From the sequence record NC_070981.1: a DNA stretch of 64,000 nt. One strand, given 5' to 3'. Numbering within the stretch: position 1 is the stretch's first letter; each line of letters starts with the position of its first letter. The translations under genes and the position numbers were made by a program. The notes beneath the pieces are model-generated. The model was not told where the DNA came from, searched no databases, and saw nothing but the letters and a program-made list of their open reading frames with translations. The DNA is from Escherichia phage EK010. This document shows positions 1 through 10,395 of the stretch, piece by piece.

Positions 1-30
1 TAAGGATTGATATTAGACATGCATTATTTA

Positions 31-523
31 CCCATGTATATCTAACCAGTATTCTCCCACCCGTATTTCTCTTACTCATGTTAAGGAAGGATGAAAGGCT
101 AGCACTGTACAGGCATACTAATAGAAGACTATAACTAACCGGTATTAATAGTAAGAACATTAATGATAACCTATGTAAACTATACTGTTGCTAACACTTC
201 CCCACGTTTGAATGTAATAACTTATGTGATTATTTATGAGTGGATTATTGATGTATGTATGTTTAGACTGGTTATTGTTTACTTTAGTGATTATGTTAAT
301 TCTTTCTTTTAATCTTTTTCTTTTTCAGAGATTCTTTTTTCTTTTGATGAGTAGATTTTTGACTGGTAATTTATTACCGCATGGTCTGACCTGTTACCTG
401 TAACTAACTTACATTATATCCCACCCGTTTCCCCTTCCTCGTTAGGCTTCTTACCCATTGGCTAACCTATGCGGCACGTCTTACCCATCTATCTATCCCG
501 TTGGTCTGCTACCCGTTCTATTA
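31..523. repeat. Direct-repeat motifs in ORF-free left end (TTACCCAT x3, CCCACCCGT x2) flanking a T/C-rich tract
   Basis: Motif copies read at ~31-63 and ~419-500; pyrimidine run ~301-350; no ORF >=60 aa in 1-700. Confidence 0.5.
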
Positions 524-633
524 GTGTTATAAAGTAACATTCTGTCAGTAAGCTGTACCTCTGAGTAAGAAAGTTTAGTAAATTAAACTCCTTTTAGATT
601 CAATGAGTTATGAAATAGTTTGAAAATAAGTGG

Positions 634-661
634 TTGACATGTTTTTCCTTTAATATATAGT
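634..661 (+). promoter_or_regulatory. sigma70-type promoter (TTGACA -35, TATAGT-like -10) with upstream A-rich tract
   Basis: TTGACA at ~634-639, -10 ~656-661, 40 nt before ATG 702. Confidence 0.55.
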
Positions 662-701
662 TGCGACTGTAGTTTGTAGTTCACATCAACCGAAAGGATT
701 A

Positions 702-1571
702 ATGAAAATGTCAAAGTTAGCAATTAAATACTTGAATCAAGCAAATGATGTACTTTCTCCGTTAGGTCTTTCCGTTGGTGTGCCTTCTCAATGGATGGAT
801 AACCAGCAAGCTCGTACCAGCTTTAAAAACTCTGTCATTCTGGCTTGTCTTATCATAGATTCCGCTGCGAACGCCTTACAGTGTGAAGATGAGCAGTCAA
901 TGAAAGAGAATGGTTTTACAGATATGCAAGATGCTATCAACTGTTACATTCAGGCTAATTTAGATAGTTGGACTCAGAATGATTGGCCTGAATCTTGCCG
1001 CGATGTTAACGCAGTATTATCCCGCTTGTCTGCTATGGTTGAAGCTATTCAGAACAAGAAGAAGAAAGATAGTAAGCCTTCTATTGCAAGTAAGATTATG
1101 AAGTCTGTCAACCTTGCAAGTTATGCACTGGTTGCAGCTATCGGTGTTAGTGCTATCGCTACCAATGTGCAGGCAAAAGACTCTCTTTCTACAGGTCTGC
1201 AATCCTTTGTTAGCACGTTTAAGAATGCTCCTGATATGGCTTGCCGTGACGTTGGCAGTGATGGTAATGATTCATTTTGGAAGGTGCATTTTAACTCTGT
1301 AACCGTAAAAGATGTGCGTGTCACTCTTACCCCGTTAGGTGAGAAATCAGGCGTTCAGTCGGTCATTAATTTGAAACGTGCTGACAGTGATCACGACATG
1401 GTGACTTATTCTCTATATCAGAAGATTGAGAAAGAGAAATTACAGTTTGTAACTAATCTCGTTAGCTATGGTGATGTTAGTGAAACTGTACTCGCTACCA
1501 CTGCTTATAATGACGGTGTAGCAGTTTATACAACCTTTATTAACTTTGCTAATTGTGAGGCTATTCAGTGA
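702..1571 (+). CDS. hypothetical protein (289 aa)
   Basis: Track ORF; ATG start after promoter; no recognisable motif. Confidence 0.7.
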   Translation: MKMSKLAIKYLNQANDVLSPLGLSVGVPSQWMDNQQARTSFKNSVILACLIIDSAANALQCEDEQSMKENGFTDMQDAINCYIQANLDSWTQNDWPESCRDVNAVLSRLSAMVEAIQNKKKKDSKPSIASKIMKSVNLASYALVAAIGVSAIATNVQAKDSLSTGLQSFVSTFKNAPDMACRDVGSDGNDSFWKVHFNSVTVKDVRVTLTPLGEKSGVQSVINLKRADSDHDMVTYSLYQKIEKEKLQFVTNLVSYGDVSETVLATTAYNDGVAVYTTFINFANCEAIQ

Positions 1572-1816
1572 ACGAATCATTTGCAACCGTGATAAACGCC
1601 TATATGTGCATCCAGCACGGTGATTTGGTTATCAGTGGTAAATATGGCCTTGTACTGATTCCTATCCGTGCTTTGGCTTCCTTGTCTTCAGCACATGCAC
1701 GCATGACTATTGCCCGATTGTCCGGCCTTGATCCCATGACCGCTAACGAGTATCGTGATTTGCTGGTTAAGTCTGGTTTATCGCTGGAAGAACTGTTAAC
1801 CGTCGAGGATAATTAA
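1568..1816 (+). CDS. hypothetical protein (82 aa)
   Basis: Track ORF; start overlaps upstream stop (ATGA coupling). Confidence 0.55.
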   Translation: MNESFATVINAYMCIQHGDLVISGKYGLVLIPIRALASLSSAHARMTIARLSGLDPMTANEYRDLLVKSGLSLEELLTVEDN

Positions 1817-1818
1817 CG

Positions 1819-2091
1819 ATGGAAACTATTGCCATTATTGAAACACATAATTACGGCGTAGGCATTACACTGAATTATGATGCTATGGCTGACGTTGGTA
1901 ATTTGTTATTGATCACCCCTAGCGATATGAAAATTATTGCCTTCACTGGTATTATGCTTATTGGTGCGGATTATCTTGAGCTAGCCCAATTCTTTGCCCG
2001 TAATGGCCTACTATTGGACGTTGACGAGGTGCAAGCCATTTGTGAAACCTTTGATAACTATCTAGATAAGGTAGTAAGTGGTGAGCAATGA
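1819..2091 (+). CDS. hypothetical protein (90 aa)
   Basis: Track ORF tightly following previous gene. Confidence 0.55.
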   Translation: METIAIIETHNYGVGITLNYDAMADVGNLLLITPSDMKIIAFTGIMLIGADYLELAQFFARNGLLLDVDEVQAICETFDNYLDKVVSGEQ

Positions 2092-2105
2092 TTCATAAAT
2101 ATTTC

Positions 2106-2134
2106 TTGCATTGCCTGATTGCTTTCTGTATCAT
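2106..2134 (+). promoter_or_regulatory. possible sigma70-type promoter (TTGCAT-17-TATCAT)
   Basis: Hexamers read in intergenic region before 2191 gene. Confidence 0.35.
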
Positions 2135-2190
2135 GTTATTTACCTATGACATGATTTCTTATGTTGCACGTTCCTTGTAAGGGTTGGATT

Positions 2191-2517
2191 ATGAAAATTA
2201 AATTAGCTGTATGTGCTGCCTTGTTCGCTGTTTCTTCCGTGTCACATGCTGCCGTATTCAATGAGGCTAGCCTTGATGGTCTGCAATGCACCTATCTAAT
2301 GGAAAATTACGACACTGGCAAAAAGTCTAGCAAGGTAGTATTGATTGACCTGAATGATTATGATCATCGTGTCGTTGATGGCAAGCATGCAATGCTAGTC
2401 AATGAAACTACAGGCAAGCAAATTACTATTGATCACATGATGCGATCTAGCATGACGTTGTTCGATGAGTCGATGAACGAAATATCATCCGGTAACGGCA
2501 CTTGCACCAATCCGTAA
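2191..2517 (+). CDS. small exported protein with N-terminal signal peptide
   Basis: Internal ATG of track ORF 2161-2517 gives MKIKLAVCAALFAVSSVSHA signal-like N-terminus. Confidence 0.55.
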   Translation: MKIKLAVCAALFAVSSVSHAAVFNEASLDGLQCTYLMENYDTGKKSSKVVLIDLNDYDHRVVDGKHAMLVNETTGKQITIDHMMRSSMTLFDESMNEISSGNGTCTNP

Positions 2518-2536
2518 CCAATCCGTAAGACTCTCT

Positions 2537-2562
2537 AAGCGCCCTTTTGAGGCGCTTTTTTC
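2537..2562 (+). terminator. intrinsic terminator
   Basis: AAGCGCC/GGCGCTT stem, 7-nt loop, T-tract, directly after stop at 2517. Confidence 0.7.
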
Positions 2563-2766
2563 ATTTCTAAGGTGATTGTATGCCTTACTCCCTTTTAGCT
2601 CGTTGTGATGCGTTACAGGACGCTTATTATTGCTTTACAAGCCATTTCCTGTGATGTATCACGCGTGCACGTTCCTTTACCTCCTGATTTCTTTGTAGTT
2701 CCTATCCTCCCTAAAATAAATTCCTTTATAAAACAGTGAGATATAAAATAATTTGAAAAAAGGGTA

Positions 2767-2795
2767 TTGACAGGGTTTTCCTGTATAGTAATATG
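2767..2795 (+). promoter_or_regulatory. sigma70-type promoter P1 (TTGACA-16-TAATAT)
   Basis: Consensus -35 hexamer plus A-tract UP-like element upstream. Confidence 0.6.
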
Positions 2796-2922
2796 AATCC
2801 CGTAGTAAGCAGTAAGTAACAACAAGTAGTAAAAACTCCTCGATAGGTGATTAGCATCACGGTAAAAGGCTTCAACGGGGAGCGGTAGGAATACCGACAG
2901 TAAGACGCACAATGAAGTGCTA

Positions 2923-2936
2923 CGCTCTTTAAAAAT
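2923..2936 (+). promoter_or_regulatory. boxA-like antitermination motif CGCTCTTTAAAAAT
   Basis: Matches lambda nutL boxA (CGCTCTTAAAAA) and rrn boxA (GCTCTTTAACAA) consensus. Confidence 0.5.
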
Positions 2937-2970
2937 CAGGCTAGAAAGTGAAAATACTTTAAAAATAGTA

Positions 2971-2999
2971 TTGACACCGAAAACAGCCTGATTCATAAT
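2971..2999 (+). promoter_or_regulatory. sigma70-type promoter P2 (TTGACA-17-CATAAT)
   Basis: Near-consensus hexamers, A-rich upstream. Confidence 0.65.
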
Positions 3000-3032
3000 A
3001 AGCACTCAGTCAGCGATGACTTAAAATATCCC

Positions 3033-3046
3033 CGCTCTTTAAAAAT
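3033..3046 (+). promoter_or_regulatory. boxA-like motif CGCTCTTTAAAAAT
   Basis: ~30 nt downstream of P2 -10. Confidence 0.55.
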
Positions 3047-3095
3047 ATGATTTGTCTTACAGGTGGCGGCGACGTCATTACTATAAGGCGCTTAG

Positions 3096-3124
3096 TTGAC
3101 CACTAGAATTGATTCCTGATTCAT
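3096..3124 (+). promoter_or_regulatory. degenerate copy of the P2/P4 promoter module (TTGACC ... CATACG)
   Basis: Aligns with P2/P4 but -10 hexamer is degraded. Confidence 0.25.
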
Positions 3125-3302
3125 ACGTGAAACAGGCGGACGATGAGCAACAAAATAAGCCTCATTTGTTCGATACTTTCAAATGGTCGATGCTTGAAAG
3201 CGCACTAGATTCCTAAAAGACAAATCAGACTTATCATCTTGCCCTTTCGCATAGATTCACGCGAGATAAGGGAACGGAATAAAAGAAGACGATAAAAAAG
3301 AG

Positions 3303-3330
3303 TTGACAAGGTGAAACGTTCTGATAGAAT
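3303..3330 (+). promoter_or_regulatory. sigma70-type promoter P3 (TTGACA-16-TAGAAT, TG extended -10)
   Basis: Hexamers read directly; A-rich UP-like tract upstream. Confidence 0.65.
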
Positions 3331-3353
3331 GTTCACTAAGCAGTAAGAAACAC

Positions 3354-3367
3354 CGCTCTTTAAAAAT
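3354..3367 (+). promoter_or_regulatory. boxA-like motif CGCTCTTTAAAAAT
   Basis: ~20 nt downstream of P3 -10; followed by TAAGCG-CAAC-CGCTTA hairpin. Confidence 0.55.
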
Positions 3368-3469
3368 ATGAATCAGAAAGTTAAGCGCAACCGCTTACAA
3401 TCTTGTTAATCCAATGCGTGATTAACTGGTCATTCGAAAGAATAGACGAGAAAAAGATTTAAAAAGTGG

Positions 3470-3498
3470 TTGACACGCTAAACAGGATGATTCATAAT
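3470..3498 (+). promoter_or_regulatory. sigma70-type promoter P4 (TTGACA-17-CATAAT)
   Basis: Near-identical module to P2. Confidence 0.65.
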
Positions 3499-3587
3499 GA
3501 GCACTCACTAAGCAAATCACCGCGAAGTGAACAGCGTAACAACGGCTAACAGTTGCATAGTGTGAGAAAACACACTGATAGATTTAC

Positions 3588-3600
3588 CGCTCTTTAACAA
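3588..3600 (+). promoter_or_regulatory. boxA-like motif CGCTCTTTAACAA (rrn-type)
   Basis: 12/13 match to E. coli rrn boxA as I recall it; followed by TTTAAACA. Confidence 0.55.
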
Positions 3601-4414
3601 TTTAAACATTCTCCTATATCGGTTGAATATGCTAGATGATAATAACCATCGGATAGCATACCAGATAAAACGGTGTAAGATTCTCTAAACTATCAGAGTA
3701 AACAACCTTACAATCCCTTAACTGGAAACGTCACCACTGATAAACAGATTCATCGAGTGCACGCAAAGACTTAAGCTAATCGCCCACGGTTAAGGGTAGC
3801 GGCGGTCATCGCTAACAAGGCGCTACGGTGAAAGAAGTTAATCGGGGTAGGCAATTCCGACGAATACAAGCTCAATTGAGAGCGGCGGTGAGTGGTTAAA
3901 GAGTAGCAAATTGCTATTTAACAATAAGGTTTAGTGTGAACGTTTACGAAGTGAATGATTTGAGGCCACTATTGATGGCGTACATAATCAGTTTATGTAG
4001 TAAACCTGCTGAAAGATATAAAACGTCAATGTATCAGGCGGCTAATGACTCTTTCGCAATAACCTCCCGTAGTGGGCGATGGTTAGCGATTGAGAGTTAG
4101 TATAAAAGGATAGGCGGGAGCGAAAGCAAAGTAAACGATATTACCGACGGTTACAATAAAGTAACTAATTAGAGTCGGGCACACTGCCTTATTGTGATGA
4201 TTGATCATCGCTGGCAAATCGGCTTTGTTTATAGCGATTAGTTGAATCCACCAGATGAAACATCACGGCAAGTTAGGCGGCAAGGTTAACTCCTGATAAG
4301 ACCGCCTGATTTACCACTGGTTACTAATAGTTAGTGATTAGTGTTAAGTCATTGTGACTTGAATAGCTCATAGAGAGCGGCGCATAGTGCGTTTACAATT
4401 GAAAGGTGAATATC

Positions 4415-5317
4415 ATGGCTAAAGTTTTTAATCTGGTTAACGAATCCGGCTTTAATGCACTGGCTAACAACATTCGTAGCAACAACGCGGCAATCAAACA
4501 AGATGTTTCTAATTTCCTGTTAGGTCATTTGCAGCACTTCCGCACTAACGGTAAGAAACTTCATGTATTGCAGGCGGCGGTTGATTTTCTGTTAACTGAA
4601 CGTTATCGTGATTTAGATGTGATTGCAGTTGCAATCTCTTTCCTCACTCCTATCAAGTTTAACACCGATGCGGCAAATGGTCGTAAAAAGTGGATTAATC
4701 TGGAAGGTGAGGCGAAAGCGAAAGAAGATGCGAAAGAAGCGCAAATTAAGGCCAAAATGGAACAAAACCGCGCTCGCTGGTCAAACTCCTTTGAACGCTT
4801 TGCTAAAGGTGAAGACGTGCAGGTTGATAACCCAGCATTCTACAAAGGTTGCAACGACAACGTTCCGGTAGCAAACCAGATCAACCAGAAGGTTAACGAA
4901 AACTTTAATCAGGATATTTATGCACTGGTTGACCGTCTGGCTGCAATCCGTATTGAATCGGCATTACTAGCAGATGAACGCAATGGCGCATCTTCTGATA
5001 ACACTATCGCATTGAGTGAAGAAGTAGGCAAAGTTAAGAAAACTTTCGATTCACTCCTTAAGAAAGTAACCGCTTCAACTGTATCTATCAGCGATGACTA
5101 CCTGATTAATGCCTCGACTAAAGAGCTTGAATCTTTGGACTCATACGCCGATGAAATGGAAAAGGCGATCAACGAAATGACTGAAAAATTGTCTAACCTT
5201 CGCGGTCGTATCTCAAATGCTTCAACTATCAAAGCTAATGAGAAAGCTGCGCAGGAAGAAGAAGAAGTGTTGCGCAAAGCTGCCGAAATCATGGCGGCAC
5301 GCCAACAAGCTGCATAA
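4415..5317 (+). CDS. hypothetical early protein (~300 aa, charged, coiled-coil-like C-terminus)
   Basis: Track ORF 4406-5317; ATG 4415 preceded by AAAGG SD; first gene after promoter/boxA leader. Confidence 0.7.
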   Translation: MAKVFNLVNESGFNALANNIRSNNAAIKQDVSNFLLGHLQHFRTNGKKLHVLQAAVDFLLTERYRDLDVIAVAISFLTPIKFNTDAANGRKKWINLEGEAKAKEDAKEAQIKAKMEQNRARWSNSFERFAKGEDVQVDNPAFYKGCNDNVPVANQINQKVNENFNQDIYALVDRLAAIRIESALLADERNGASSDNTIALSEEVGKVKKTFDSLLKKVTASTVSISDDYLINASTKELESLDSYADEMEKAINEMTEKLSNLRGRISNASTIKANEKAAQEEEEVLRKAAEIMAARQQAA

Positions 5318-5338
5318 CCCATAATAAAGAACAAGTAA

Positions 5339-5371
5339 GGCGCTATTCGAAAAGGTAGCGCCTTTTCTTTT
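5339..5371 (+). terminator. intrinsic terminator
   Basis: GGCGCTA/TAGCGCC stem with T-tract after stop 5317. Confidence 0.7.
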
Positions 5372-5416
5372 ACTAGTGCATTGATTCAGTGTGCTAATCA
5401 AAGAAACTAAAAAGAG

Positions 5417-5650
5417 ATGATCACCATGCCAAAATTGAAAACAGAAGTTAAGATGTATCGTAATATCTTAAACAATATGACCTATCGTAAAACCGATAGA
5501 TATGGAATCGAATGCAAATGCACCCTTACCGGTGAATGGTATCCGTCACCGATTCAAGAACAAGCCTTGATTGATAACTCTGTCACTTATACTATCACGC
5601 AGGAAACTAAGTTAGGTCGTCTACTTCGTAAGCTAGGGCTTCGCAAATGA
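5417..5650 (+). CDS. hypothetical small protein (77 aa)
   Basis: Track ORF with AAAGAG SD-like sequence. Confidence 0.5.
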   Translation: MITMPKLKTEVKMYRNILNNMTYRKTDRYGIECKCTLTGEWYPSPIQEQALIDNSVTYTITQETKLGRLLRKLGLRK

Positions 5651-5868
5651 TTTTAACTCAATCCCACCTTTGCCCCATCTGTAAGAAAGCACGTGCTAAC
5701 AACAACCATCGCAAATGTAGCAGAATCTTACAACGTCGTCGTAATGATGCCGAGATGGATAAGATTCGAAAGAATCAGCATGAGCACGAAAGAAAACAAG
5801 CGGCGATTAGTGCATCTTCTGTAATGTATCGTCGTGTAAGAGCACTCCAATATAAAGAGGTTGTTTAA
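5647..5868 (+). CDS. hypothetical small basic protein with CxxC motif (73 aa)
   Basis: Track ORF; start overlaps upstream stop. Confidence 0.5.
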   Translation: MILTQSHLCPICKKARANNNHRKCSRILQRRRNDAEMDKIRKNQHEHERKQAAISASSVMYRRVRALQYKEVV

Positions 5869-6078
5869 ATGACTAGTTTAAGCACGTTAGAGAAGAAAGC
5901 GACTCGACTGTTAGGGCGTCGTGTCCGCTACCACTACCTGAATAAAGGTAAGGCATTAACCGGACGTATTACCACGGTATCCAGTTGTCGCGGTAAACTG
6001 ATCTCTGTAAGTGTTCTCTTTGATGGTGAAAAGGTAGCAATTACACGTAGTTGGAAGTCATTTAGTTTAATTGATTAA
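5869..6078 (+). CDS. hypothetical small protein (69 aa)
   Basis: Track ORF adjacent to previous gene. Confidence 0.5.
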   Translation: MTSLSTLEKKATRLLGRRVRYHYLNKGKALTGRITTVSSCRGKLISVSVLFDGEKVAITRSWKSFSLID

Positions 6079-6148
6079 GTTATTTGGTTAAGCCTTGCTG
6101 TGTGGTAAGGCTTGCACGATATAATTTATCAGCGAAAGGAATAAAGCA

Positions 6149-6592
6149 ATGGCTAAATCTAAAATCAGCATGAAAGGCGGACGAGTGTTCTCTATGAGTG
6201 AGCTGGAAAAAGAAAAGCCAGCCGCTGTTAACCATATTAGCAAACGTAGCCTTAAACGCAGGGCTATGAAACAGGCCGCTCAAGAACATAAAGAATCTCC
6301 TGTACCAAAGGTACTAGGTCGCCGTGTTCATCGTGCTGATGCGCTTCTTCTTGCTGATCACAAGCGTTCCTTGTTAACCAACGGGGCGGCGAAAACGGAA
6401 CAAGAAAAGCGTTTAGAAATCTTCTGCAACGGTCGCACTAAAGGTAAGCAGAAGAATAAAGGTAGCACTAAGCCGCCGAAAGCATTCCCTACTACTAGCC
6501 AATGTGCACCTGATGTTTTCTACGCTGATAGCAAACACAAGTGGGGAGTTGAAAAATATATTGACCCAATCAAAACAGCAAGAGTTAAGTAA
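6149..6592 (+). CDS. hypothetical basic protein (147 aa)
   Basis: Track ORF; Lys/Arg-rich. Confidence 0.6.
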   Translation: MAKSKISMKGGRVFSMSELEKEKPAAVNHISKRSLKRRAMKQAAQEHKESPVPKVLGRRVHRADALLLADHKRSLLTNGAAKTEQEKRLEIFCNGRTKGKQKNKGSTKPPKAFPTTSQCAPDVFYADSKHKWGVEKYIDPIKTARVK

Positions 6593-6622
6593 GCCCCTTC
6601 TGTACCAGTGGTCAACTACTAT

Positions 6623-6646
6623 GACGCTCTTCTTGAGCGTCTTTTT
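6623..6646 (+). terminator. intrinsic terminator T1
   Basis: GACGCTC/GAGCGTC stem, TTTTT. Confidence 0.75.
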
Positions 6647-6650
6647 GTCT

Positions 6651-6671
6651 GCCGCCTTTGTGCGGCTTTTT
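6651..6671 (+). terminator. intrinsic terminator T2
   Basis: GCCGC/GCGGC stem, TTTTT. Confidence 0.7.
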
Positions 6672-6752
6672 GCGTAGCTAGTGATGCCTAAAGGGAACTC
6701 CCTTTGTGAATCATTGGCATGGTTCAATTCCTATTGGATGGTCATTTGACCG

Positions 6753-6776
6753 GGCCTTTAACGAGGCCTCTTTTTT
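6753..6776 (+). terminator. intrinsic terminator T3
   Basis: GGCCT/AGGCC stem, TCTTTTTT. Confidence 0.55.
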
Positions 6777-6800
6777 AAGAGTCTTTACGAGGATTCTTAA

Positions 6801-6932
6801 ATGAGTGAGGTCATGTTCACTCTTTCAGGTCGCCCCGTCTTCGGATGGGGCTTTTTTATGCCCGTAAAACAGGGGGTAGTAAGTTCTGATAACGACAGCC
6901 CAGCTACTTTTGACATTGACTATTTATTATGA
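6801..6932 (+). CDS. possible short leader ORF (43 aa) spanning terminator T4
   Basis: ATG with GAGGA SD; overlaps start of 6910 gene in another frame; below track size cut-off. Confidence 0.2.
   Translation: MSEVMFTLSGRPVFGWGFFMPVKQGVVSSDNDSPATFDIDYLL
6832..6857 (+). terminator. intrinsic terminator T4
   Basis: GCCCC/GGGGC stem, TTTTTT. Confidence 0.7.
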
Positions 6933-7296
6933 GGCAGGGAATCAGCCAACCGCTTGCAAAGCATTAGTAGCGGATACCGTAATAAACAGAATGTCACAAC
7001 GAAAACTGACTGCCGAGCAGGTTATAAACCAACGAAACCAGTTCGAGTGGATACCCGTCCTATTAAAGAAGGAGAAACCTTTTAAGCGTTATGTAAAGCT
7101 GATTCGTGATGATAATCCTCTGATAAAGAAAGCAATCAGAGAGAGCGAGGAGCTTGCAAGACGTGCACTGAAGAAGGGTTATGTGCCTTTATATAGCGGT
7201 ACATACTTTCAGAGTAAGAGCGAAGGGGTGCCAAAGTGGTATACCAATCCAATGTATTGTGGTGATTTAGTGTTCAATAATAGTGCCCGTGACTGA
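6910..7296 (+). CDS. SleB/CwlJ-like cell-wall hydrolase domain protein
   Basis: IYYEAGNQ...CKALVADTVINR...QVINQRNQFEW motifs typical of Hydrolase_2 family; apparent TTG start. Confidence 0.55.
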   Translation: MTLTIYYEAGNQPTACKALVADTVINRMSQRKLTAEQVINQRNQFEWIPVLLKKEKPFKRYVKLIRDDNPLIKKAIRESEELARRALKKGYVPLYSGTYFQSKSEGVPKWYTNPMYCGDLVFNNSARD

Positions 7297-7497
7297 TTCA
7301 TAGGTGCCAAGATCGACAAACTAAATTCCCTTATAAATCACCTACTTATGATTTTCTCTGTAAAAAGTGGTAGTGATTCGGAACCAGAGGTAATGACTGT
7401 ATATAGACCTCTGAAAATTATTGATAGAAATTAAGTTTAGAAATAATAAATTCTAAATAATATTTCTTATAATATCTTACTTTAAGAGGATAAAGAT

Positions 7498-7803
7498 ATG
7501 ACTTTAGAGGTTTATAAGTTCCTTCTCGTACTCACTGTAACGATCTCTACTCTAGGATTTATTGCTTTAAGTAATAAATCAGCAAGCTGGAAGCGTCGTT
7601 ACGAGTTCCTTCTTAAGCAAGAGGAAGTCTTTAATGCTGATGTTCGTTCCAAACTGCTCAAGATGCAGGAGCAAATTGAAGCACGTAATGATCGTTTGGC
7701 TTCTTTGGGTTGGGAGATTAAACGTATTCAAGATCTCAACAAGCAACTCACTGAAGAAATTAAACGCCAGAATGAGGAAACAGAGGATGCGCTCAAAGGT
7801 TAA
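7498..7803 (+). CDS. membrane protein with N-terminal TM helix and coiled coil
   Basis: Track ORF; hydrophobic FLLVLTVTISTLGFIAL. Confidence 0.55.
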   Translation: MTLEVYKFLLVLTVTISTLGFIALSNKSASWKRRYEFLLKQEEVFNADVRSKLLKMQEQIEARNDRLASLGWEIKRIQDLNKQLTEEIKRQNEETEDALKG

Positions 7804-7963
7804 GTTTACCACTGGTAACACTGTTCGCCTTGTTGGCGGTACTCAAACAGGTGTTATTCGTCGGAGAACAACGATTGATGGTGTTCTCTGTTATCTTGTT
7901 CAGTGGAATGGTGAATCTTCTCCTTCCTTCGAACGTCGTACTGATTTGGTGTTAATCAAATGA
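7787..7963 (+). CDS. hypothetical small protein
   Basis: Internal ATG of track ORF 7634-7963 with GAGGAAACAGAGG SD. Confidence 0.4.
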   Translation: MRSKVKFTTGNTVRLVGGTQTGVIRRRTTIDGVLCYLVQWNGESSPSFERRTDLVLIK

Positions 7964-8190
7964 AAATTAATCTCTTCTCTGTAGTTGTTACCAAAAAGCT
8001 CAGTGAGTTACGTCCTGGCGATGTGTTCCGTTTACCAACTAACTCTGAAAATGTCTACCTAAAGACAGACACTAGACTTAACGATATGCATCGTGTGGTT
8101 GGTCTTAGTCAGGGGACACTGTTCCAATTACAGGAAGACCATGAAGTTATCCCTGTACCTGATGTTCAAGTAACTCATATCGGTGGTTAA
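7960..8190 (+). CDS. small protein, paralog family A (LRPGDxF ... EDxEVxPVP)
   Basis: Track ORF; shares motifs with 13142-13390, 9245-9496, 11500-11754. Confidence 0.55.
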   Translation: MKINLFSVVVTKKLSELRPGDVFRLPTNSENVYLKTDTRLNDMHRVVGLSQGTLFQLQEDHEVIPVPDVQVTHIGG

Positions 8191-10317: not shown

Positions 10318-10395
10318 GCACCCTTAGCTCAATTGGATTAGAGTAGCGACCTTCTAAGTCGTCGGTTACAGGTTCGAATCCTGTAGGGTGCACCA
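10318..10395 (+). tRNA. tRNA-Arg (anticodon UCU)
   Basis: Hand-folded cloverleaf: 7-bp acceptor stem GCACCCT/AGGGTGC, anticodon loop CUUCUAA, T-arm ACAGG-TTCGAAT-CCTGT, encoded CCA. Confidence 0.85.

Follow-up and report, generated by a model that had tools for sequence, protein, structure and literature searches.

A conserved structured RNA between an array of boxA-bearing promoters and gp124 in Escherichia phage EK010 and its relatives

Why does a compact phage genome keep a long stretch without genes, and what does this stretch encode? The question is raised by positions 3601–4414 of a 64,000-nucleotide (nt) stretch of Escherichia phage EK010 (NC_070981.1), hereafter the window, which lie between an array of promoters and the homologue of the phiEco32 gene gp124. 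A first-pass annotation had proposed that this region could encode a structured leader or non-coding RNA (ncRNA) or very small proteins, or be an origin-like region. Our data strongly support the view that 3601–4400 gives rise to a plus-strand RNA of about 0.8 kb that is highly structured. This RNA is probably a highly expressed leader of the gp124 mRNA that is made by a Nus-factor-antiterminated polymerase and acts as RNA.

Positions 2700–4500 are 100% identical to Escherichia phage E20-1 (OP293233.1, reverse complement), a phiEco32-like podovirus (genus Kuravirus, subfamily Gordonclarkvirinae). About 90 bp separate the first letter of the window from the right end of the genome, and early transcription runs from that end. 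The corresponding interval of phiEco32, between genes 125 and 124, spans about 1.9 kb and carries no annotation, and the SU10 genome paper describes a ‘spacer region’ with three sigma-70 promoters (PMC4281155).

Conservation and fold of the RNA

Positions 3006–4405 (1400 nt) are overlapped by no open reading frame (ORF) of at least 60 amino acids (aa) in any frame. The first-pass annotation had reported no such ORF in 3601–4414 or between 3005 and 4406, and this was confirmed; the longest ORF within 3601–4414 has 54 aa (3936–4100, plus strand). It had also called the gap unusual for so tightly coded a genome. That holds for its length, because it is the longest internal gap of the window, the second-longest is 405 nt, and ORFs of at least 60 aa cover 90% of the window. 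It does not hold for the lack of ORFs alone, as 38% of shuffles of 3601–4414 likewise had none. For non-coding DNA, a lack of ORFs is nothing special. The unusual feature is that so compact a genome contains so long a non-coding stretch and that this stretch is conserved.

The full 814 nt are present in all 96 of 96 related phage records, with 78–100% identity to the window and a length of 810–824 nt except for an insertion in phage LAMP. In an alignment of 25 sequences, mean pairwise identity was 0.83–0.94 in 3581–3930 and 4081–4414, which equals that of the gp124 coding sequence (CDS). The least conserved island, 3931–4080, corresponds to the apical hairpins of the second domain of the RNA fold described below. 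The LAMP insertion of about 35 nt (L008, about 2200–2330) falls in this island, which looks like a tolerated expansion segment. Variability at the three codon phases was 0.126/0.142/0.132 in the region compared with 0.087/0.058/0.308 in gp124, and the region was less variable than the third codon positions of gp124. This flat phase pattern and the low variation indicate that there is no coding signal and that purifying selection acts at the nucleotide level.

The 25 sequences (alignment A1, window 3556–4430) were folded with RNAalifold. The consensus contained 231 pairs in about 38 helices (−242.6 kcal/mol), and standard pairs filled 98.9% of the pair cells of A1. Changes on both sides were found in 76 of the 231 pairs (337 cells). 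Column shuffling gave 34.8 ± 2.9 pairs and 83.5 cells, and none of 500 shuffles was as high as the observed value. When the 3′ partners were slid by 1–3 columns, which keeps the phylogeny, 8–12 pairs and 12–23 cells were obtained. The covariation check with homologous phage regions that had been suggested in the first-pass annotation thus gave compensatory changes well above both controls. G-U pairs made up 11.2% of cells and A-C pairs 0.4%, and a minus-strand reading of the same helices would lower the paired share to 88%. This asymmetry indicates selection on a single strand of plus polarity and not on duplex DNA. The minimum free energy of the single sequence 3601–4400 was −237.9 kcal/mol (z = −7.7) for the plus strand and −205.9 kcal/mol (z = −3.65) for the minus strand. 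The loops are A-rich and mostly conserved at 0.9 or more.

The fold starts just before the last copy of boxA, the RNA signal that loads Nus factors on the polymerase, and ends shortly before the Shine-Dalgarno sequence of gp124. Its parts are as follows.

3559–3576, plus strand: boxB-like hairpin GTGTGAGAAAACACAC, helix 1 of the fold, with six pairs of which three covary
3601–3900, plus strand: RNA domain 1, multi-branched, with a closing helix (3601–3613/3888–3900) that starts directly after boxA
3901–3919, plus strand: hairpin between domains 1 and 2 of the consensus fold
3913–3924, plus strand: internal boxA-like word GCTATTTAACAA with one mismatch, whose core TTTAACAAT occurs in all three clades
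3921–4195, plus strand: RNA domain 2, closed by 3921–3938/4180–4195
4194–4393, plus strand: RNA domain 3, a row of hairpins that ends 8 nt before the gp124 Shine-Dalgarno sequence

The closing helix of domain 1 has 11 pairs, three of them with changes on both sides, and encloses the hairpins 3628–3660, 3661–3725, 3730–3852 and 3869–3884. In the intermediate clade, all pairs of this helix are canonical (100%) and 17 cells are compensated, and the far clade folded alone has an analogous helix. Domain 2 contains the variable apical hairpin 3956–3990 (7–9 covarying pairs) and the hairpins 4024–4040, 4041–4101 and 4144–4178, with TCCCGTAGTGGGCGAT and GAGCGAAAG as conserved motifs. Domain 3 consists of the hairpins 4194–4266 (inner hairpin 4217–4239), 4270–4313, 4315–4343, 4345–4361, 4366–4378 and 4379–4393. 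The word GCTATTTAACAA at 3913–3924 could be a second site of Nus-factor loading or merely a conserved junction.

The short inverted repeats listed in the first-pass annotation are real. They are GATGATTGATCATC at 4196–4209 and AGGCGG/CCGCCT at 4277–4282/4302–4307, and both form the arms of helices that are invariant or supported by covariation. Two words described there as recurring, GCGATTAG (4233–4240) and GTGATTAG (4333–4340), occur only once each; they are not a significant repeat family because both sit in the 3′ arms of two hairpins. A terminator scan flagged GCTGGCAAATCGGC followed by TTTGTTTATA at 4210–4223. This is probably not a terminator, since its bases belong to the hairpin 4217–4239 in the consensus fold.

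Homologues of gp124 were found down to 45% identity in metagenome assemblies, and 11 distant relatives with gp124 proteins 45–72% identical were analysed. All fetched contigs with a distant gp124 have a gene-poor zone of 1.4–3 kb upstream of it, in which small genes were called in L031 only. When the Kuravirus structure was placed on five previously unused intermediate sequences (56–61% identical), 68–81% of pairs were canonical and 43–66 pairs were changed on both sides, and the slid controls gave 33–51% canonical pairs. Six far-clade sequences, aligned by sequence only, had 55–61% canonical pairs compared with 33–47% in slid controls, with domains 2 and 3 best kept. Folded independently, the far clade showed a hairpin before boxA and then a helix after boxA that closes a domain of about 300 nt; its second domain is closed by ACAAUUUGGUU/AGCCAAAUUGU and is followed by a matching series of 3′ hairpins. 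A covariance model, R1, was built from Kuravirus domain 3 only (4194–4346, 154 positions). It found 11 of the 11 distant loci at the equivalent place with 69–128 bits (E values 1e-13 to 1e-27), against a background of one 22-bit match in 640 kb. In the alignment fitted with R1, 38 of 44 pairs showed changes on both sides and 97.7% of cells were paired, values that are structure-biased by construction. The checks that are independent of the structure are the five intermediate sequences, the far clade folded alone and the search with R1. The motifs ATCGCCCACGG, TTTAACAAT, TTATGTAGT, TAGTGGGCGAT and GAGCGAAAG are common to all clades. The structured leader or ncRNA suggested at first is strongly supported by the lack of codon periodicity, the plus-strand covariation, the z score of the fold and the architecture of distant relatives.

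Uncultivated relatives (L029, L031, L032, L034, L036, L038, L041, L042, L044 and L045; Logan/ENA contigs of 4.5–100 kb) carry the same module of promoter, boxA, RNA and gp124. These contigs also have several small early genes downstream, and they fall into two or more additional clades outside the named genera. Scans of metagenome and GTDB genome contigs with degenerate patterns, which are poorly specific, gave at least six true Kuravirus-like relatives among 240 fetched loci, and no true relative in bacterial genomes was found among the matches listed. IMG/VR yielded 5 and 3 loci only. In the distant phage 7-11, from another family, both boxA and gp124 are missing at the early end.

Promoter array, boxA signals and the gp124 unit

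The RNA is preceded by a series of promoters and boxA copies and followed by gp124. The features around it are listed below.

2537–2557, plus strand: intrinsic terminator that closes the upstream small-gene operon (gp128–gp125 homologues), found by scan; the SU10 and SU7 records annotate the same place
2767–2935, plus strand: unit A, promoter TTGACA-16-TAATAT (2767–2794) with an A-rich upstream tract, and boxA GCTCTTTAAAAA (2924–2935)
2971–3045, plus strand: unit B, promoter TTGACA-17-CATAAT (2971–2999), and boxA GCTCTTTAAAAA (3034–3045)
3303–3366, plus strand: unit C, promoter TTGACA-16-TAGAAT with TG (3303–3330), and boxA GCTCTTTAAAAA (3355–3366)
3470–3498, plus strand: promoter D, TTGACA-17-CATAAT, the last before the RNA and conserved in the alignment
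3589–3600, plus strand: last boxA GCTCTTTAACAA, 826 nt before the gp124 ATG in the window
4402–5317, plus strand: Shine-Dalgarno sequence AAAGGTG (4402–4408) and gp124-homologue CDS (ATG 4415, stop 5317), 300 aa, with strong codon periodicity
5337–5372, plus strand: intrinsic terminator after gp124, with an 11-bp stem and a T-run, found by scan and annotated in the SU7 record

The four sigma-70 promoters (2767, 2971, 3303 and 3470) are near consensus, and each has an A-rich upstream tract and a boxA downstream. The boxA consensus that was scored is (U/C)GCUCUUUAACAA, read on the transcribed strand and placed after a promoter. Exact boxA, GCTCTTTAA(A/C)AA, occurs in the 64 kb only at 2924, 3034, 3355 and 3589, all on the plus strand, in addition to the copy with one mismatch at 3913. 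The sequence 3580–3597 (AGATTTACCGCTCTTTAA) is invariant across the 25 relatives, and 3598, within boxA, varies between C and T. Across 40 loci there are 2–5 units of promoter and boxA each, and the last boxA lies 826–936 nt before the gp124 ATG. Towards its upstream end (2500–3230; loci L002–L025), the array is mosaic, with units gained, lost and shuffled between close relatives. The colinear block conserved in all relatives of the Kuravirus group begins near 3231.

The last unit resembles the leader of the E. coli rRNA operons (rrn). The leaders of these operons contain boxB, boxA and boxC and form leader–trailer helices (PMC10250234). The phage hairpin 3559–3576 shares TGAGAAAA, which covers stem and loop, with the boxB hairpin of E. 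coli rrnB, and the far clade has an equivalent hairpin with five covarying pairs before its last boxA. The last boxA and the next 4 nt form a run of 16 nt (GCTCTTTAACAATTTA) that is identical to the rrnB leader. The rrnB leader has the arrangement GCCGCTGAGAAAAAGCGAAGCGGCAC-TGCTCTTTAACAATTTATCA and the phage has GTGTGAGAAAACACAC-(12 nt)-CGCTCTTTAACAATTTAAAC. The order of boxB before boxA is clear for the last unit only. Across 3800–4300 the GC skew is +0.17 to +0.30 (G over C), a bias contrary to that of a Rho loading site.

Some further elements on or beside the array and the RNA were considered. A sequence like the promoter of the phiEco32 gp36 sigma factor, AATGTAT at 4030, is unconserved and was rejected. 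An ORF of 130 aa on the minus strand at 2613–3005, antisense to the promoter array, seems to be an annotation artefact. The record of phage CHD5UKE1 (L002 2184–3774) has nine tiny, mostly antisense ‘hypothetical proteins’ over the RNA, and these also look like annotation artefacts.

gp124 is always linked to the RNA, and because of this constant linkage it is a candidate RNA partner. The protein is made up entirely of helices, the C-terminal one being long, and it has invariant basic motifs, NGKK at 45–48 and G89, K91, K92 and W93 within GRKKW. Searches with gp124 led to a PHROG without assigned function and to no sequence match in Pfam or PDB, and Foldseek against PDB and BFVD found only its own orthologues. 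The strong intrinsic terminators 2537–2557 and 5337–5372 bracket the promoter array, the RNA and gp124, so this unit looks like a self-contained early operon. Elsewhere in the window, a tRNA-Arg (anticodon TCT) at 10318–10395 was the only tRNA or tmRNA in the scan; such a tRNA has been reported for phiEco32-like phages. Near 46 kb the sign of the GC skew reverses, presumably because the direction of transcription switches there between the early/middle and late blocks.

Proposed function and rival explanations

Rho quickly ends the synthesis of untranslated RNA; long transcripts of this kind, among them rRNA and CRISPR arrays, are shielded by boxA together with Nus factors (PMC7665894). The arrangement in EK010 suggests a similar course. 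The host sigma-70 RNA polymerase would transcribe the region immediately after infection, starting at any of the tandem promoters. NusB/NusE would be recruited by the nascent boxA RNA and, with NusA, NusG and SuhB, would give a Rho-resistant elongation complex of the rRNA type. The modified polymerase would cross 0.8–1.6 kb of untranslated RNA and may help the long-range helices to close, and the helix after boxA would enclose domain 1 in the way of the rRNA leader–trailer helix. Transcription would read through into gp124 and would then mostly stop at the terminator after this gene. The product would be a folded RNA of three domains at the 5′ end of the gp124 mRNA, of which it is physically the leader. 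Instead of being a passive spacer, it would most likely serve as a stable and abundant ribonucleoprotein (RNP) scaffold or decoy, with gp124 and/or host proteins, in the take-over of the host.

We favour the RNA itself as the functional product because of its size, the long-range closure of its domains, its conserved loops and its conservation at the level of a protein gene. Within this explanation, a role as a stable RNP or decoy in early take-over is favoured because of the linkage with gp124 and an expression that would be of rRNA-promoter strength. It is also possible, with lower confidence, that the RNA is made through the host Nus/SuhB machinery, is released from the gp124 mRNA, acts in trans and forms an RNP or a higher-order particle, possibly with gp124. 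Just as tentatively, such a particle might take over a host system or act as its decoy; ribosome biogenesis factors, RNases and RNA-sensing defences against phages are examples. A role as a sponge for CsrA was rejected, as there are only four GGA in the 875 nt.

Several observations count against an rrn-like, RNA-based function. The percentages of paired cells in A1 and A4 are inflated, because these alignments were derived from or fitted to the structure, and the alignment of domain 1 with the far clade is poor. No GU-rich boxC was found after boxA; the sequence there is TTTAAACATTCTCCTATATCGG, and there is no element like UGUGUGGG. No recognisable RNA-binding fold was found in gp124. An intrinsic terminator follows gp124, and efficient override of intrinsic terminators is not known for the rrn-type complex. 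Finally, the RNA reaches the ribosome-binding site of gp124 without an intervening terminator, which makes a purely cis role as a 5′ untranslated region (5′ UTR) possible.

This last explanation is a serious rival, though we hold it to be rather unlikely. A purely cis-acting 5′ leader, regulatory or protective, would shield the early transcript from Rho and RNases and/or tune or delay the translation of gp124, and it would have no detached function. It agrees with the way the RNA abuts the Shine-Dalgarno sequence of gp124, with the constant linkage of RNA and gene and with a unit that stops at the terminator after gp124. The dense structure and the skew of G over C are what selection for Rho avoidance would be expected to produce, and phage T7 has a similar layout with a short leader. 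However, insulation needs far less than about 830 nt with some 38 specific helices, long-range domain closures and loops whose motifs reach a conservation of at least 0.9 across clades, and deletion of the leader would be a cheaper answer to Rho. The only candidate for a translational switch, a long-range pairing of boxA with the Shine-Dalgarno sequence predicted by RNAalifold (3582–3592/4401–4411), was rejected; it shows zero covariation and broken cells, and it is only 47–57% canonical in the other clades.

The two other explanations place the function in the DNA or in peptides. A replication origin that is activated or primed by transcription, like ColE1 RNA II, or a genome-entry spacer of the type at the T7 left end, is very unlikely. 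In its favour, the region is close to the end of the genome with the early promoters. The origins of T7 and T4 and that of ColE1 typically have non-coding DNA that is strongly transcribed, and the folded RNA of the phage could serve as a primer or in R-loop formation. But selection here acts on pairing in one strand, as the excess of G-U over A-C cells indicates, dense RNA folding disfavours R-loops, and compensatory changes are not expected of a mere spacer. There is no repeated iteron-like word and no antisense promoter in 3601–4414, and the skew does not switch there, the only switch being near 46 kb. The origin-like region of the first-pass annotation therefore found no positive evidence. 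Very small proteins (below 60 aa) missed by ORF calling deserve hardly any weight. Three plus-strand ORFs are intact in most relatives, namely 3828–3899 (23 aa, 22/25), 4194–4241 (15 aa, 24/25) and 3623–3688 (21 aa, 18/25), and the CHD5UKE1 record annotates its nine tiny ORFs. Yet the variable columns of these three ORFs fall on the codon positions without bias (9/11/12, 6/4/5 and 10/8/12), the peptide differences are mostly non-conservative, and the region-wide phase signal is nil. The intact short ORFs lie in helix arms that are conserved on account of their strong pairing. Only one of the 25 sequences has the 54-aa ORF intact, and the ORFs of CHD5UKE1 are mostly antisense. Among all ORFs of at least 12 aa screened in the 25 relatives, none was both intact in all of them and biased by codon position, which speaks against the small-protein suggestion.

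Comparison with known systems and significance

The closest likeness is to the rrn leader of E. coli. Both have tandem strong sigma-70 promoters with A-rich tracts, a boxB-like hairpin (TGAGAAAA) followed by boxA (16 nt, GCTCTTTAACAATTTA) and a long untranslated structured RNA downstream, in which a helix of the leader–trailer type directly after boxA encloses a folded domain. Unlike the rrn leader, the phage has no GU-rich boxC, a boxA follows every promoter, the transcript carries a protein gene, and the 0.8-kb cargo is unrelated to rRNA (no Rfam or BLAST similarity). The early region of phage T7 is also alike in its cluster of strong promoters for host RNA polymerase near the genome end, an exact GCTCTTTAACAA and a first early gene. 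In T7 (L287), the promoters A1, A2 and A3 are followed by GCTCTTTAACAA at 813–824 and gene 0.3 at 925, so that one boxA serves after three promoters and about 100 nt separate it from gene 0.3, whereas here 826–936 nt of folded RNA intervene. In a T7-type region, this short leader also holds an RNase III site. The T7 boxA at 813–824, between promoter A3 and gene 0.3, is unannotated in the RefSeq record.

The boxA of lambda nut, used with N, and HK022 put are likewise RNA signals in early phage transcripts that modify the host polymerase. Lambda nut has boxA and boxB, and put is about 70 nt long. The phage order differs from that of nut in being rrn-like, with the boxB-like hairpin before boxA, and its boxA has the full rrn consensus and not CGCTCTTA. 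We know of no N-like protein in these phages. ColE1 RNA II is likewise untranslated and specifically folded, is several hundred nt long and starts at a sigma-70 promoter, but here no antisense RNA I promoter is present and a protein gene lies directly downstream. The scan found no promoter-like site on the minus strand in 3601–4414, and no change of skew occurs there. In CRISPR arrays, boxA upstream of a long untranslated transcript prevents premature termination by Rho (PMC7665894). The cargo there is an array of repeats and spacers that gives crRNAs, whereas here it is a single non-repetitive fold of several domains.

With GOLLD, ROOL and OLE (PMC12286853), the RNA shares a size class of 600–800 nt, many conserved helices and A-rich conserved loops. 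It differs from them in having no match to an Rfam covariance model and in the host range of virulent coliphages. GOLLD and ROOL are present in phages and prophages. To our knowledge, neither a 5′-leader position before a protein gene nor an rrn-type boxA array is a feature of GOLLD, ROOL or OLE. Lax scans of 1–8000 and 3500–4450 with Rfam 15, whose families include GOLLD, ROOL, OLE, group I/II introns, RNase P, tmRNA, 6S and riboswitches, found no family in the region; the best scores in 3500–4450 were 13–15 bits (E > 1) against thresholds of 34–60. The region had no BLAST match in 5,426 E. coli genomes, which indicates that no segment beyond the short boxA is derived from the host. In the literature searched, which did not cover the original phiEco32 papers, no ncRNA or boxA was reported for these phages. 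As far as Rfam and this literature show, the RNA appears to represent a new family.

The element joins boxA antitermination of the rrn type with the class of large ornate ncRNAs, an arrangement that is new, and it does so in virulent coliphages. Conserved RNA folds above 500 nt are rare, and GOLLD, ROOL and OLE come mostly from organisms that are hard to work with. The phages phiEco32 and SU10 and those of the BASEL collection grow on E. coli, including derivatives of K-12 (PMC11990801), and the function of the RNA is therefore directly testable. If it acts in trans, it would open large ornate RNAs for the first time to the tractable genetics of an E. coli phage. For the annotation of these genomes, the ‘spacer’ of 1.4–1.9 kb in about 100 phage records, which is unannotated or filled with spurious tiny ORFs, should be given its promoters, boxA elements and ncRNA. 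For phage engineering, it is unsuitable as a neutral insertion site. A virulent phage would here copy the leader of host rrn operons, with boxB, boxA and a helix like that of leader and trailer, repeatedly and in tandem to express a non-ribosomal RNA. Nus-factor antitermination, known from rRNA, lambdoid phages and CRISPR arrays, would thereby gain a further use.

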